Shown here: positions 806 through 25,241 of the stretch, piece after piece | How positions within the stretch are numbered: the first letter of the stretch is position 1 | Layout of the letters: every line of letters begins with the position of its first letter | From: Methanobacteriota archaeon | GTDB taxonomy: Archaea; Thermoplasmatota; Poseidoniia; Poseidoniales; Poseidoniaceae | Assembly: GCA_011525095.1 (NCBI GenBank) | Contig: WTIV01000096.1 | Location: 1-29,773 of the forward strand | Length of the DNA stretch: 29,773 nucleotides | Direction of reading: 5' to 3' | Notes under the pieces: generated by a model | Databases searched by the model: none | What the model was told of the DNA's origin: nothing | What the model saw: the letters and a program-made list of their open reading frames with translations, nothing else | Program-made: the position numbers and the translations under genes

Positions 806-2007
806 CATTTGTGCACGACCTAACTCAAAAATTAGAAGATAATAGAGAACTGATTAGTGAATGGATGGCAAAGAAACGCAGTGAAGTTCCAATACCAATT
901 TATGGAAGCGTGGACATTAGAGACGCAGGTTGGAAAGTTGCAGTTGTGGATGCTAACCACTTCCCAGCAGGTTTCAACAATACTTCACCAGAGGATGAAC
1001 CACATCTTTCTGCACTGCTTAGAAATCACATTAAGCGTAAGCACGAAGGATGTACTTGGGTCCATCTTTATCCTGAGTCTCATACAAGAAATCCGGGGTA
1101 TGTAGAGAATGTTGCAACAATTAAGCGTTTGATTGAAGCAGCAGGATTCAGATGTACGGTTGGCTCGCCCGAACTAGAAGAGCATGGTTCTCTGGATGGA
1201 ATTACGGGTCCTTTGAAATTAGATGCTGTTGAAATTGAAGGAGATAATCTGCTAATTGATGGAGAGAATCCATGTCTTGTACTGTTGAATAACGACCTAA
1301 CAGAAGGCATGGTCGGTGGACTTGGCGCACACCAAGTTTCACCACCACCTCACATGGGCTGGCAGAGGAGAAGAAAAAGCGAGCACTATGAGTGTCTACA
1401 ATCATACGTCAATGAAATAGCTGAAATTCTTGAAATCGATCCATGGCACCTCCTATCCAGTTGGTTCGTTTCTGAAGATAAGTGCCTCGAGAAAGAATCA
1501 TGCCGCCAAATGCTAGCGGCTGAAGTCGATGAATTCCTAGCAAGAATCGAGGCCAAATATCAGACATTAGGAATTGATAGAGAGCCTGTTGCATTTATCA
1601 AAAACGACCGTGGCACCTACGGTCTAGGAATAATGGCTGTAAAAAGTGGGAGCGAATTGTTGAATCTCTCTAATAGAAAATTCAAGCGACTAATGTACTC
1701 TAAAGGCGGAGTAGATGTAGAAAATTTCCTAATTCAAGAGGGTGTTCCAACCGCAATTAATACCGATGAGGGAGCACCAGTAGAACCAGTAGTTTACCTT
1801 GTAGATGGAGAAGCTGCATCTTGGTTTTACCGAATAAATGCAAAGAAGGGAGAGATGGAAAACCTAAATTCGCCCTCGGCTGAGTTCAAACCATACAGCG
1901 AGGTAGGCATACAGTTTGGTGAGCATGCACATGGTTGGCACGCACTTGTGTCAGAATTGTCAATGCTTGCTATGGGCGCTGAATCTCAAAAACAGATGGA
2001 GGGTTGA
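802..2007 (+). CDS. gshA: Glutamate-cysteine ligase, ATP-grasp GshA family (PF08886-like)
   Basis: PIYGSVDIRDAGWKVAVVDANHFPAGFNN, IKNDRGTYGLGIM, LIQEGV, EPVVY and ENLNSP all match this family. ATGA overlap with the upstream stop. Confidence 0.8.
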   Translation: MTFVHDLTQKLEDNRELISEWMAKKRSEVPIPIYGSVDIRDAGWKVAVVDANHFPAGFNNTSPEDEPHLSALLRNHIKRKHEGCTWVHLYPESHTRNPGYVENVATIKRLIEAAGFRCTVGSPELEEHGSLDGITGPLKLDAVEIEGDNLLIDGENPCLVLLNNDLTEGMVGGLGAHQVSPPPHMGWQRRRKSEHYECLQSYVNEIAEILEIDPWHLLSSWFVSEDKCLEKESCRQMLAAEVDEFLARIEAKYQTLGIDREPVAFIKNDRGTYGLGIMAVKSGSELLNLSNRKFKRLMYSKGGVDVENFLIQEGVPTAINTDEGAPVEPVVYLVDGEAASWFYRINAKKGEMENLNSPSAEFKPYSEVGIQFGEHAHGWHALVSELSMLAMGAESQKQMEG

Positions 2008-2008
2008 T

Positions 2009-2992
2009 TTGCGAATTCACTGCTTGGGAGGGGGTTTAGTTGGCTCCTTCGTGACCAGAAAGTTGGTCGAAGCGGGTTTCGACGTACATCTGTACGACGT
2101 AACTGAAAGACAGACAACTGCAACTTTTCATCTCGAGGATGCCTTGCAGGCAAACCATGATTTGGCAGATTTTGTTGTCAACATGCTACCGGGTTCCCTT
2201 GGTAATCAGATGACATCCATCCTCAAAGATTCTAGTCTGAAAATAGTAGATCTATCATTCAGTGAAACAACACCAGATACGCTAACTGATGTCAGTAGTT
2301 CGATTCTTTGGGATGTAGGAATTGCTCCTGGTTTATCGAATATGCTAGTCTCAATGGCAGTCAGAGAATTCGGAACTCTTGATGAAGTCACAATCAAAGT
2401 TGGCGGTAATCCTGCTCAACCAGACGGCGAATGGTCGTACATGGCTCCGTTTTCACCTCATGATGTCATCGCTGAATACACAAGACCTGCAAGGATAATC
2501 TCGAATGGCGAAAAAGTAAGCGTACCAGCAATCAGTGAACTACATTCAATCGATGCAAATGGCAGGCAAATGGATGCATTCCTAACCGATGGTTTACGCT
2601 CACTACTAGACCTCCCTGTCAAGAATATGGGGGAATATACGGTTAGGTGGCCGGGTCATATTCAGAAATATCAGGAGAGTGAGTTAAACCCTGATGAATT
2701 GATTGAGGCTTGGAAAATGGACCTCGCAAAGGCTGAGTTCACTTGGATGGAAGTTTTCATCAAGTCGGGCGAGAATACACAGAGATGGATTGTCGAAGAT
2801 AATGGAAAAGAAAACGATTCCAGTATGGCAAGAACCACAGGTCTAGTCACTGCAAGTTGTGTCATCGCTTGGGTTGACCGACCTGAAATGCTTGGTAGTG
2901 GAGTTTTTGCCCCAGAGGATCTGCCCAGCGAAGTTATTGAACTAGTAATCGAAGTAATGCGTTCAGAAGGCGTTTCAATAGAACTACACTGA
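2009..2992 (+). CDS. Saccharopine dehydrogenase / lysine 6-dehydrogenase family NAD(P)-dependent oxidoreductase
   Basis: Rossmann start RIHCLGGGLVG; VVNMLPG; DVGIAPGLSN; YMAPFSPHDVIAEYTRPA; SMARTTG. Probable TTG start at 2009 after GGAGGG, 1 nt past the gshA stop; the ORF-track start at 1916 is too far upstream. Confidence 0.8.
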   Translation: MRIHCLGGGLVGSFVTRKLVEAGFDVHLYDVTERQTTATFHLEDALQANHDLADFVVNMLPGSLGNQMTSILKDSSLKIVDLSFSETTPDTLTDVSSSILWDVGIAPGLSNMLVSMAVREFGTLDEVTIKVGGNPAQPDGEWSYMAPFSPHDVIAEYTRPARIISNGEKVSVPAISELHSIDANGRQMDAFLTDGLRSLLDLPVKNMGEYTVRWPGHIQKYQESELNPDELIEAWKMDLAKAEFTWMEVFIKSGENTQRWIVEDNGKENDSSMARTTGLVTASCVIAWVDRPEMLGSGVFAPEDLPSEVIELVIEVMRSEGVSIELH

Positions 2993-3002
2993 TGGTGATT
3001 TG

Positions 3003-3650
3003 ATGCGCAGGGTTGCAGTTTACGCATTAACAATCGGCATTGGTTTGTATGTTAGTGCAAAGTATGCTGAATGGCCTGTAAATATCTGGTGCTTGGGTCT
3101 ATTTGCTTGGTTATTCAAAGAGGCTGAAAGAAAAGAGCGGATTGAGATGTTGACCGTGTTAGCATTTGCGACTCCAATGGAACTGTTTTTCTCAGAGGTT
3201 TGGTTAATTTACGAATATCAACGTGGATTAATGCCTCTATTCGTACCGGTTGGCCACTGGTTCTTATTTGATGCAGGTCGAAGGCTGAGTCAATATCTTG
3301 CAGCAGATAAAGCGATGTTGAGTTTGCTGCCGTTTGTGCCTTTAGTCGCTTACGGGGTATGGACTGGCGGAGATACCTCTGCAGTATTTTTGCTAGTCTT
3401 GGTTCTTGTTTTCACCAGATGGGGCCCACAGCCAGCACTCTATGCAACAATGGCTTGGGCTGCTCTTCTGATGGAGTTATGGGGGACATATCTTACAAAT
3501 TGGACATGGGCAAATGAAGTTCCATGGACGGGACTCACGGCATGGAATCCTCCTCTTCTTGTTGGAGCATTCTATTGCCTTGGAGACTGGTTGGTGAATA
3601 TTTCAGTAGAGAGGTTTGAAAGTAAGCACCCAGTGGAGGTAGATGTATGA
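3003..3650 (+). CDS. Hypothetical multi-pass membrane protein (~7 hydrophobic segments)
   Basis: 216-aa ORF, GGTGA RBS at 2994-2998, hydrophobic and Trp-rich, ATGA overlap with the next gene. Confidence 0.75.
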   Translation: MRRVAVYALTIGIGLYVSAKYAEWPVNIWCLGLFAWLFKEAERKERIEMLTVLAFATPMELFFSEVWLIYEYQRGLMPLFVPVGHWFLFDAGRRLSQYLAADKAMLSLLPFVPLVAYGVWTGGDTSAVFLLVLVLVFTRWGPQPALYATMAWAALLMELWGTYLTNWTWANEVPWTGLTAWNPPLLVGAFYCLGDWLVNISVERFESKHPVEVDV

Positions 3651-9666: not shown

Positions 9667-10119
9667 TCACCACTTGTATTCTCTCCAATCCTTCTGATGT
9701 TCAGGGATGTACTTGTTCTGGCTATGCTTGACAATGATTGTGTCAGGCAACACGAATTTCAGATAGATGATTCCCATCATAATCAGGGTTGTAATGCCCA
9801 TGGCCATGTGATAGGATAGTTGCTGTTGGTCCCAACTAGAGCCGTTGAGCAGCCCGTATAGCATAGTTCCAAACCAGTACAAGGCCCAGAAAATTCCCCA
9901 TGAGAAGAAGAATATCGTAAGGGCAGATTTACCCGATGGTGCCAAAGATGCTGAGATTACTGTACCTGGTTCTGCTGGATTGAATACTCCGTGATTAATC
10001 GCAGCATCCATCTGTTCTTCAGTGAGTGATGCATCTTCTAGTGCTGTGCGAGCATCCTTGACGCTCACCTTACCTGCAGCGACCTTCTCAAGCAGTTGTG
10101 TGATCGTGTCTTTAGCCAT
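9667..10119 (-). CDS. Hypothetical 2-TM protein, translationally coupled within the Rieske/cytb operon
   Basis: TGATG overlap with the upstream gene; its stop overlaps the Rieske RBS; short helical N-terminal domain followed by two TM helices. Confidence 0.7.
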   Translation of the reverse strand: MAKDTITQLLEKVAAGKVSVKDARTALEDASLTEEQMDAAINHGVFNPAEPGTVISASLAPSGKSALTIFFFSWGIFWALYWFGTMLYGLLNGSSWDQQQLSYHMAMGITTLIMMGIIYLKFVLPDTIIVKHSQNKYIPEHQKDWREYKW

Positions 10120-10922
10120 CACTGGTCACCTCTTCTGTTAATCTTGTATCTCAGTCTCAGCAAGTTGCTGCGGCCTTTGTAAGATGTTGAGAACCCGTAT
10201 CTTAGGAGGAGTCCACAGAATACAATCACTGCGATTACTGCGCCAAATCCTAGTAGTCCAAGCCAGTGTGCTCTGAAACCAGCACCAAGTGTCGAGATGT
10301 CGATTTCCCCGGCTTTACTTTCTGGTGCTTGTGGAGTTCCGCTTCCTGCGATTAGGGTTCTATCTCCTCTCTTATCATCTGCTGGCGCTTCTATTAGATT
10401 GAATACAATCTGGTTCCAATAATCTCCAGCGGGTCCGTCTGCTCCATTGACAGCGTTTCCGCTAATCCAGAAGTCGACAGTTGTTCCGCTAGAATTGTCA
10501 GCAGGTGCGGTCCATGTAAGTTCAAAGATTCTTGAGTTGGGCGATTGGTGTGTTCTGGTTGCTGCATCATCTTCCCATGCTTCGCCATCACCGGACCATT
10601 CTCCTGCGCTGACTCTAGCAGAGAATCCACCCATGTTAGTGTCCGGGCCACCGATGACTTCCAATCTCATGTCATACTCTGTATCTGCGACCCATGTGTA
10701 TGGGACACCGACAAGGAGGACCATGACATCGTTACTTGGCTGTTCTCCATGGCATAAACAACCCTCTTTGGCTACGTCATCGATTGTTTCTCCATTGTGA
10801 GAATGACCGCCAGCTCCGATGCCGTCTGGGTATGCGTTGGTGATGCCCGGCAAGAGCATCAAAGTTACAAGCACCATAGGCAGGAGACTTCGTTGGAAAA
10901 CCTTCGACATTAGCATCGCCAA
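10119..10922 (-). CDS. Exported Reeler-like (choice-of-anchor V-like) protein with CLCH motif and C-terminal membrane anchor
   Basis: Signal peptide ending ...GITNA; GHSH and GCLCHG; LTWTAPA..VDFWISGNAVNG..GDYW matches Reeler-like domains from memory; TM HWLGLLGFGAVIAVIVFCGLLL. Start could be 10922, 10916 or 10910. Confidence 0.7.
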   Translation of the reverse strand: MAMLMSKVFQRSLLPMVLVTLMLLPGITNAYPDGIGAGGHSHNGETIDDVAKEGCLCHGEQPSNDVMVLLVGVPYTWVADTEYDMRLEVIGGPDTNMGGFSARVSAGEWSGDGEAWEDDAATRTHQSPNSRIFELTWTAPADNSSGTTVDFWISGNAVNGADGPAGDYWNQIVFNLIEAPADDKRGDRTLIAGSGTPQAPESKAGEIDISTLGAGFRAHWLGLLGFGAVIAVIVFCGLLLRYGFSTSYKGRSNLLRLRYKINRRGDQ

Positions 10923-16105: not shown

Positions 16106-16179
16106 GGGCCTGTAGCTTAGTCAGGTAGAGCGTCCGGCTTTTAACCGGACGGTCGCGGGTTCGAACCCCGTCAGGCCCG
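16106..16179 (+). tRNA. tRNA-Lys (anticodon UUU), intron-less, CCA not fully encoded
   Basis: Acceptor stem GGGCCTG/CAGGCCC, D arm gcttagtcaggtagagc, anticodon arm TCCGG-CT-TTT-AA-CCGGA, T loop GGTTCGAACC, discriminator G. Confidence 0.97.
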
Positions 16180-16229
16180 CCTGACAAGATACCGGCCAAG
16201 TGTATCAGGGCTCAGCGGGGTGTGTTTTT

Positions 16230-16850
16230 TTGGTAGTAAAGTCGGCAACTAAGAAGCGTTTGATGGAAATGGGCATAGCAGAAGAATATGCTCACAAACT
16301 TGCGACAGATCGAAACATGACAGATATCAAGGCCATGCCGGCCGACGAAATTGCGTCAGTTCTAGGTGTCTCAAAAGACGATGAAATTTTCACCGGCGCA
16401 ATGAATGCCCTCGCAGAATTAGGCCAGCGCAGACAGAAACGCAGAAGCCGAAAAATCACTATTTCAAGAAAAGCACTCGATGACGATGACATGGACTTGG
16501 CAGGTACCAAGTTCAACGTTCTAAACCACGTTCTTGTACCACACCAGGAACTAGTCCCTGTTGAGAGTGAGGAAGAAGAACTTGCTCCATGGGGTCTTTT
16601 GACAACCGATTCAGAAACCGGTGAGTCAAGACTTGCTAAGGAACTTCTCCCAAAGATTCTGATTACCGATCCAGTTGTTCAAGTGATTAAGGAAACCACT
16701 GAAAGAGCACATGACGCAGCGTCAACAGATGACGAAGAGCACGTCCCTCTACCCGCAGGATGGCTCGCAGACCGTGTTCTAAAGGTAGTAAGGCCTTCAC
16801 CATCCGCTGGTGTTTCGGTTGCTTACAGACTAATCGTGGAGGGCAGCTGA
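16230..16850 (+). CDS. rpoH: RNA polymerase subunit Rpo5 (H) with ~93-aa N-terminal extension
   Basis: Core FNVLNHVLVP..LPKILITDP..KVVRPSPSAG.SVAYRLIV. TTG start at 16230 behind GGGGTG; this start aligns with the RpoA'' start MVVKSATKK. Confidence 0.9.
   Translation: MVVKSATKKRLMEMGIAEEYAHKLATDRNMTDIKAMPADEIASVLGVSKDDEIFTGAMNALAELGQRRQKRRSRKITISRKALDDDDMDLAGTKFNVLNHVLVPHQELVPVESEEEELAPWGLLTTDSETGESRLAKELLPKILITDPVVQVIKETTERAHDAASTDDEEHVPLPAGWLADRVLKVVRPSPSAGVSVAYRLIVEGS

Positions 16851-20476: not shown

Positions 20477-25241
<4,765 letters not shown>

Follow-up and report, generated by a model that had tools for sequence, protein, structure and literature searches.

A small helical domain heads two RNA polymerase subunits of Poseidoniales archaea and proteins of virus-like elements

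The C-terminal domain of the alpha subunit of bacterial RNA polymerase (alpha-CTD) is a small helical domain of the helix-hairpin-helix (HhH) type that occurs twice per enzyme and serves as a contact point on a flexible linker. In RNA polymerase (RNAP) with the subunit RpoH (Rpo5), this subunit is the lower jaw beside the incoming DNA. Poseidoniales, the Marine Group II archaea, are very abundant in the ocean. RpoH has been placed near downstream DNA (PMC2847245), and another appendage, Rpo13, has basic tails and contacts double-stranded DNA (PMC13257274). Here we analyzed a stretch of 29,773 nucleotides from a Poseidoniaceae archaeon (contig WTIV01000096.1 of assembly GCA_011525095.1; the whole stretch is called the window), in which RpoH and a second subunit, RpoA'' (Rpo1C), start with copies of the same additional domain. 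This domain, called the module below, also heads many proteins outside RNAP.

A first-pass annotation of the window had proposed that the two subunits share an extra N-terminal domain, and the translations bear this out. Residues 2-42 of RpoH (16233-16355) align without gaps to RpoA'' (23679-23801) with 26/41 identities, and BLASTP of the two N-termini gave 28/50 identities (E 1e-13). A search with the RpoH N-terminus in the genome from which the window comes (72% complete) found only two places, RpoH and RpoA''. Both copies are followed by an Arg-rich patch, as the annotation had described (residues 67-81 of RpoH and 80-92 of RpoA''). Over the first 50 codons, 27 residues are identical, 13 of them with differing codons, and third positions agree in 20/50 cases; for codons 2-45, the NG86 method gave a nonsynonymous distance (dN) of 0.43 and a saturated synonymous distance (dS) of 2.57. 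Judged from these distances, the duplication is old and under selection, which is what had been supposed from the extensive synonymous differences. Moreover, each paralogue has a signature of its own that is kept in both Poseidoniales families (..NM.DIK in RpoH and ..KWDDVK in RpoA''), and the RpoH modules form one clade in a module tree, whose 46 columns are too few to show whether the viral copies descend from RpoA'' or RpoH or the other way round. The shared signatures and the single RpoH clade place the duplication before the split of the Poseidoniales families. A recent duplication or recent gene conversion was considered as well and was rejected on the saturated dS and the paralogue-specific signatures.

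Among the long RpoH homologues (n=965), most start with MVVKSATKK at the position of the TTG codon 16230, and 683 RpoA'' homologues share the N-terminal region. The names that close homologues bear in their source records point to Poseidoniales (Marine Group II) as the organism. In relatives from most other genera, the codon exactly at the position of this TTG is ATG, Met1 is near-invariant in all module carriers, and nothing is conserved upstream of the RpoH start. The TTG codon at 16230, which had been taken as the start in the first-pass annotation, is thus the start best supported by comparison; in-frame GTG codons at 16221 and 16200 are possible alternatives by sequence. Since synonymous positions in codons 1-12 vary freely among the carriers, conservation acts on the protein. 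Contigs of four metatranscriptomic libraries cover 16153-16321 and onward, which fits transcription of the module region but is no proof of the start site. There is only a very small chance that the extension is not part of the mature enzyme, be it that the true starts lie downstream or that the 5' end is a signal at the RNA level or for N-terminal sorting or turnover. Such a signal would suit a module that is always positioned at the very N-terminus, and the RpoH start in this genome is a non-ATG codon (TTG). However, 250 genomes share the frame, Met1 and the paralogue-specific residues, most genera have ATG at this position, the dN/dS of the module is far below 1, and the module segment is folded confidently by AlphaFold2 (AF2); the free synonymous variation and the cover by RNA-library contigs speak against it as well.

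The distribution of the module was studied with a 60-column profile (A1) in two whole-genome samples, one drawn from the class (n=301) and one from the phylum (n=301). Both copies were present in 252/255 Poseidoniales genomes of the class sample (140/141 in family f1, 111/113 in f2 and 1/1 in f3), and the 45 genomes of the sister order gave one borderline match (E 0.009; 1/43 in family f4 and 0/2 in f5). The phylum sample showed the same: the module was found in 47/47 genomes of f1 and 23/23 of f2, and in none of the 230 other Thermoplasmatota genomes, which belong to 46 families. Positive genomes nearly always have exactly two matches, located in frames of about 210-250 and about 520 amino acids. 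In the two genomes with three matches, the same rpo genes lie on duplicate contigs, so extra chromosomal copies were rejected. RpoH of the sister order measures about 80-93 amino acids, in agreement with the earlier remark that archaeal Rpo5 is normally short, and RpoA'' of the sister order and of other archaea aligns only from residue 103-160 of the window protein onward. Separately, we noted sister-order RpoA'' open frames of 762-860 amino acids (genomes G003, G001, G005 and G031) versus 402 amino acids in a genome from elsewhere in the Thermoplasmatota; in the sister order, A'' may be fused with an adjacent gene, or the frame may just continue open upstream. Absence of the extension from related genomes would have refuted the first-pass annotation; it is kept order-wide, so this check does not refute the proposal. 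In the genomes and proteins searched, the module is confined to a single archaeal order and the virus-like elements of that order.

What kind of domain is it? The AF2 model of RpoH residues 1-93 has helices at residues 6-13, 18-25, 30-35, 38-45 and 52-66 with a predicted local distance difference test (pLDDT) of about 85, and a low-confidence tail after them. The earlier claim of a module of 41-45 amino acids therefore holds for the shared domain but not for its length, which is about 66 residues with five helices. In the full-length RpoH model, residues 68-99 join the module to the Rpb5-type domain with a pLDDT of about 50, and the predicted TM-score (pTM) is 0.46; the model indicates that this linker is a flexible tether. 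The five helices are arranged as in an (HhH)2 domain, that is, as two helix-hairpin-helix units plus a connector helix. Foldseek against PDB and Swiss-Prot models gave weak matches (E > 0.7) to N-terminal domains of RAD51/RadA and to UvrC, EndoIII, NusA, FANCM-FAAP24, RuvA and SAM. VIA-align (48,161 chains) placed SAM domains best (Z 7-7.9, root-mean-square deviation 1.6-2.0 Å over 60-64 residues), together with the (HhH)2 domains of XPF, ERCC1, Topo V, NusA-AR1, DisA and LigA at Z 5.5-7.2, all in the range below 8 for which the program warns that matches may be generic. In hairpin 1, Gly15 (86-100% conserved), A21 and L24 are kept, and the second Gly of the HhH signature (h-x-x-h-x-G-h-G-x-x-x-A-x-x-h) is Ser, Pro or Ala. 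Gly46 of hairpin 2 is kept in RpoH at a frequency of 0.73, in RpoA'' at 0.57 and in other carriers at 0.15. The module matched no Pfam family at E up to 10, including HhH and SAM, apart from chance low-complexity matches; its profile had no match among PDB chains at E up to 10, and no RNA_pol_Rpb5_N match appeared in the Pfam scan of full RpoH or of residues 1-93. We predict a SAM-like/(HhH)2 fold class for the module, in accordance with the helix-hairpin-helix-like module proposed at first, and assign it to no single family.

The best structural matches are SAM oligomer domains and (HhH)2 heterodimers (XPF-ERCC1, FANCM-FAAP24), which raises the question of self-association. The modules would then pair in a SAM-like or XPF-ERCC1-like manner, H with A'' within one enzyme or between clustering enzymes, and viral carriers would join or break the pairing. 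Two copies per enzyme and a bipolar charge, with a basic head and an acidic body, are in line with this. However, no positive evidence was obtained: a joint fold of RpoH residues 1-72 and RpoA'' residues 1-72 with custom alignments had a score of 0.00, which gives no evidence either way, and the structural Z-scores that suggest pairing are those in the possibly generic range. We consider pairing improbable.

The module also occurs in proteins that are not RNAP subunits. The module profile retrieved 201 proteins at E <= 1e-3 among 1.84 billion representatives, and about 60 of the best 150 matches are non-RNAP proteins in which the same module at the start is followed by unrelated sequence. These carriers are 120 to 1292 amino acids long and fall into at least 12 C-terminal families plus singletons. 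The N-terminal strand, MVVKSATKK[KR]LM[DE], is near-invariant: conservation of residues 1-13 is 60-100% in RpoH, 86-100% in RpoA'' and 70-100% in the other carriers, with a net charge of +3 in all three groups. Apart from these residues, the globular module is neutral to acidic (net charge of residues 14-45: -2.9 in RpoH, -2.9 in RpoA'' and -1.9 in other carriers). The tether region, residues 67-100, has a net charge of +4.9 in RpoH and +5.7 in RpoA'' versus +0.2 in other carriers; in non-RNAP carriers the basic tether is absent and the second hairpin is degenerate.

We tentatively propose, at somewhat less than an even chance, that the module is a tethered docking handle. The domain is lineage-specific, comprises about 66 residues in five predicted helices of the SAM-like/(HhH)2 type and is present in two copies per enzyme on flexible Arg/Lys-rich tethers, one from RpoH and one from the N-terminus of RpoA''. 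Together with the first helix-hairpin-helix, the N-terminal strand would make up a specific epitope that one common protein partner recognizes, and the basic tether specific to RNAP would add unspecific contact to nucleic acid. In large virus-like elements of these archaea, the module heads many unrelated proteins and is devoid of the tether; the elements would exploit it, presumably to recruit these proteins to the transcription machinery or to that common partner. A module without the basic tail at the head of at least 12 unrelated families on virus-like contigs speaks for a specific docking epitope and against a generic clamp on DNA. The handle is further favoured by a short epitope that hardly varies between the paralogues, for all their saturated dS, or from one unrelated viral family to another, by its strict N-terminal position and acidic body, and by carriers that keep only the head, without second hairpin or basic tail.

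The first-pass annotation had suggested that the module may grip downstream DNA or pseudo-dimerise. The modules could indeed be DNA-gripping arms, in which working (HhH)2 domains and the Arg-rich tail bind the backbone of duplex DNA, downstream or upstream, without sequence preference; they would stabilize initiation or elongation complexes, as has been proposed for Rpo13, the eukaryotic Rpb5 jaw or the bacterial alpha-CTD on UP elements, and viral proteins would reuse a DNA-binding head. We regard this as possible, if somewhat unlikely. The structural matches include the DNA-binding domains of XPF, Topo V, RuvA, UvrC and LigA, and hairpin 1, with its conserved Gly15, follows most of the HhH pattern (L-G-V-S/P with A at +4 and L at +7). 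In addition, the charge is +3 on residues 1-13 and +5 to +6 on the tether, RpoH lies close to downstream DNA (PMC2847245), and Rpo13, a neighbour of the N-terminal part of Rpo5, binds DNA (PMC13257274). However, the non-RNAP carriers have neither a second conserved hairpin nor a basic tail, and no Pfam HhH family matched even at E 10. Unspecific backbone binders normally tolerate much sequence drift, but the first 13 residues of the module are almost invariant between the saturated-dS paralogues and across unrelated viral families. Furthermore, acidic residues (E18 and E19) follow the hairpin, as they do in the protein-binding acidic repeats of NusA, and the globular part is net acidic.

Carrier genes form tightly packed, co-directional arrays rich in ORFans; the contigs measure 42-169 kb and have a GC content of 39-53%. 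The neighbours include genes for a class II ribonucleotide reductase (RNR), DNA methyltransferases, ERCC4 and Endo VII nucleases, a 5'-3' exonuclease, UvdE, dCMP deaminase and nucleoside deoxyribosyltransferase, and one neighbour protein matches a PHROG family annotated as virion structural protein. The 90-kb JGI contig Ga0208793_1000040, of which we read 40.6 kb, carries the handle protein P0391 (215 amino acids). It encodes a complete two-repeat TATA-binding protein (TBP; Pfam E 3e-53), a PolD-DP1-like (small-subunit) protein, PCNA and an ATP-dependent DNA ligase, which identifies it as an archaeal-type element, and further RNR-II, ERCC4, Endo VII, UvdE and GIY-YIG. The two repeats of the element TBP are 49-51% and 54-58% identical to those of Poseidoniales TBPs, compared with 37-47% identity to the TBPs of 68 other Thermoplasmatota (sister order, 37%); this likeness modestly supports a Poseidoniales host. 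The host TBP (G000:C62:392-964) matches the element TBP in two pieces with a gap of about 23 codons versus 3 in the query, and the same two-piece match was seen in all 13 Poseidoniales genomes listed; it seems that about 20 residues are inserted between the repeats of Poseidoniales TBPs. Magroviruses, the viruses of Marine Group II, have archaeal-type replication genes and genes for head-tail morphogenesis. They have been described as about 100 kb in size, with a sliding clamp, ligases, nucleases, an RNR in group B and, in group C, a homologue of the PolD exonuclease (PMC5434244), and the gene set of the 90-kb contig agrees with this list. For contigs of magrovirus group D, a gene for 'DNA-dependent RNA polymerase A' has been reported whose greatest similarity is to archaeal homologues (PMC5434244); this gene product could be a handle-bearing protein that matches RpoA'' via the shared module alone.

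The family of about 215 amino acids to which P0391 and P0405 belong keeps the same neighbourhood in contigs of 13-169 kb: the gene (at 10001-10650) is part of a short plus-strand cassette of 3-4 ORFans between the ERCC4 nuclease and 5'-3' exonuclease genes. In P0313 (851 amino acids), C2H2-type zinc fingers at the N-terminus are combined with an internal module of the RpoH type (residues 92-144) and with an ATPase part of the AAA_15/AAA_21 (OLD/AbiEii-like) kind; its gene (1012-3567) lies among ORFans on an 8-kb contig. P0313 may act in defence or as a decoy, or may be a chimera. PHROGs and Pfam searches with ten non-RNAP carriers and their neighbours returned almost nothing, a look-alike search of the ESM Atlas with P0405 gave no usable match, and residues 60-1292 of P0315, the C-terminal part of this carrier, had no match in the 72% complete genome of the window.

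Several points weigh against the docking handle. The structural matches are all below the level at which they would be clear (Foldseek E > 0.7; VIA-align Z < 8), and the (HhH)2 fold, the invariant Gly15, the Lys-rich N-terminus, the Arg patch and the position of RpoH fit DNA binding equally. Both the partner and the binding itself are proposals, and that the elements are viruses of Poseidoniales is something we infer from their genes. The stretches that we read showed no capsid or terminase gene, the 40 kb of the 90-kb contig also no portal gene, and no carriers were found in the copies of IMG/VR, INPHARED and the GTDB representative genomes that we searched. For IMG/VR, this applies to the module profile, to the exact DNA pattern for MVVKSATKK[KR]L and to two C-terminal queries; for INPHARED phages, tblastn with carrier or neighbour proteins found none, the RNR query retrieving only unrelated phages.

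The docking idea can also be taken further, to a module that is the address label of a transcription hub specific to Poseidoniales, with two labels on RNAP. Large archaeal viruses with their own TBP would deploy at least a dozen labelled effector families, which would redirect the transcription of the host after docking on RNAP or the hub, and P0313, as a host-side ATPase, could be a decoy sensor of such effectors. We think that this extended version is rather unlikely.

The genes and parts concerned are listed in Table 1. The operon is a standard archaeal one with the order rpoH-rpoB-rpoA'-rpoA'' and tRNA-Lys(UUU) directly upstream. RpoH residues 95-202 match PF01191 (Rpb5_C; 38.6 bits versus a cut-off of 23.5, model positions 1-73) and RpoA'' residues 142-468 match PF04998 (Rpb1 domain 5; 172.8 bits, above the curated cut-off), and these matches leave the N-terminal parts of both proteins uncovered. 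The Rpb5-type domain of RpoH comprises 108 residues versus 73 positions of the Pfam model. It aligns with sister-order RpoH of 80-93 amino acids and has two insertions compared with the 80-amino-acid form, one of which (about residues 148-181) is a long helix followed by an acidic loop with poor prediction. In metatranscriptomes, word depth reached about 377 at tRNA-Lys versus about 20 at rpoH, and single contigs span the 3' end of tRNA-Lys into rpoH.

Table 1 Genes and protein parts of the RNA polymerase operon in the window
Feature	Position	Strand	Basis and remarks
tRNA-Lys (UUU)	16106-16181	+	ARAGORN; 48 nt upstream of rpoH, same strand
rpoH (Rpo5)	16230-16850	+	206 aa, TTG start; open reading frame list
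RpoH copy of the module, residues 1-66	16230-16427	+	Basic N-terminal strand and five predicted helices; AF2, paralogy with RpoA''
RpoH tether, residues 67-99	16428-16526	+	Arg/Lys patch 67-81, then acidic run; pLDDT about 50 in both AF2 models
RpoH Rpb5-type C-terminal domain with insertions	16527-16847	+	Pfam PF01191; AF2 pLDDT 78-91
rpoB, unsplit, 1203 aa	16865-20476	+	Open reading frame list; between the two module-bearing genes
rpoA', 1067 aa	20473-23676	+	Pfam Rpb1 domains 1-5
rpoA'' (Rpo1C), 521 aa	23676-25241	+	Open reading frame list; ATG overlaps the rpoA' stop codon (TGATG)
RpoA'' copy of the module, residues 1-62	23676-23861	+	BLASTP with RpoH; profile residues 1-59, E 5e-35
RpoA'' tether, residues 63-130	23862-24065	+	Ser/Thr linker, Arg run 80-92 (23913-23951), acidic segment

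As far as is known, the Poseidoniales RNAP differs in this from all archaeal enzymes studied: two tethered copies of an undescribed domain are attached to it, on the side where DNA enters. Among proteins of large virus-like elements with apparent ties to Poseidoniales, the module is also the head that is shared most widely. To our knowledge, very few cases of viral takeover of host transcription in archaea have been described, and the module offers a testable entry point to this process. The motif MVVKSATKK... is a sequence marker that links uncharacterised marine contigs to Poseidoniales hosts. In addition, a domain of this small size should be easy to express, so that partners can be sought without culturing the organism.

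How does the module compare with known systems? With (HhH)2/SAM-like domains (the C-terminal domains of XPF-ERCC1 and FANCM-FAAP24, the Topo V repeats, RuvA domain II, the NusA acidic repeats and eukaryotic SAM domains) it shares the predicted architecture and size, with a root-mean-square deviation of 1.6-3 Å over about 60 residues and a hairpin 1 that fits the HhH pattern, and with the NusA acidic repeats also the acidic body. It differs from them in that the second Gly of the hairpin is replaced and in having no detectable sequence or profile relation to them. Unlike these domains, it begins, right at the protein's N-terminus, with a Lys-rich strand under strict conservation, and it occurs only in one archaeal order and the virus-like elements of that order. 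The likeness to alpha-CTD is by analogy one of role, as both are small HhH-type domains in two copies on flexible linkers. However, the module is located at the N-terminus of two different subunits (H and A'') and alpha-CTD at the C-terminus of two identical ones; the module had no Pfam match to RNA_pol_A_CTD (PF03118), alpha-CTD is not among its top 50 structural matches, and no contact to an activator or UP element is known for it. Rpo13 of Sulfolobales and Desulfurococcales and the N-terminal jaw of eukaryotic Rpb5 are, like the module, lineage-specific additions at the lower jaw, by the N-terminus of Rpo5/Rpb5 near downstream DNA. However, Rpo13 is a separate subunit with a helix-turn-helix and the Rpb5 jaw a different, larger fold, the module had no Pfam match to either family, and neither is duplicated on Rpo1C as the module is; we know of no occurrence of either in viral proteins. 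No description of the module was found in the searchable literature. Lineage-specific appendages of RNAP are a familiar idea and the fold class is known; what is new is a single domain on two different RNAP subunits that is common also to many proteins of virus-like elements.

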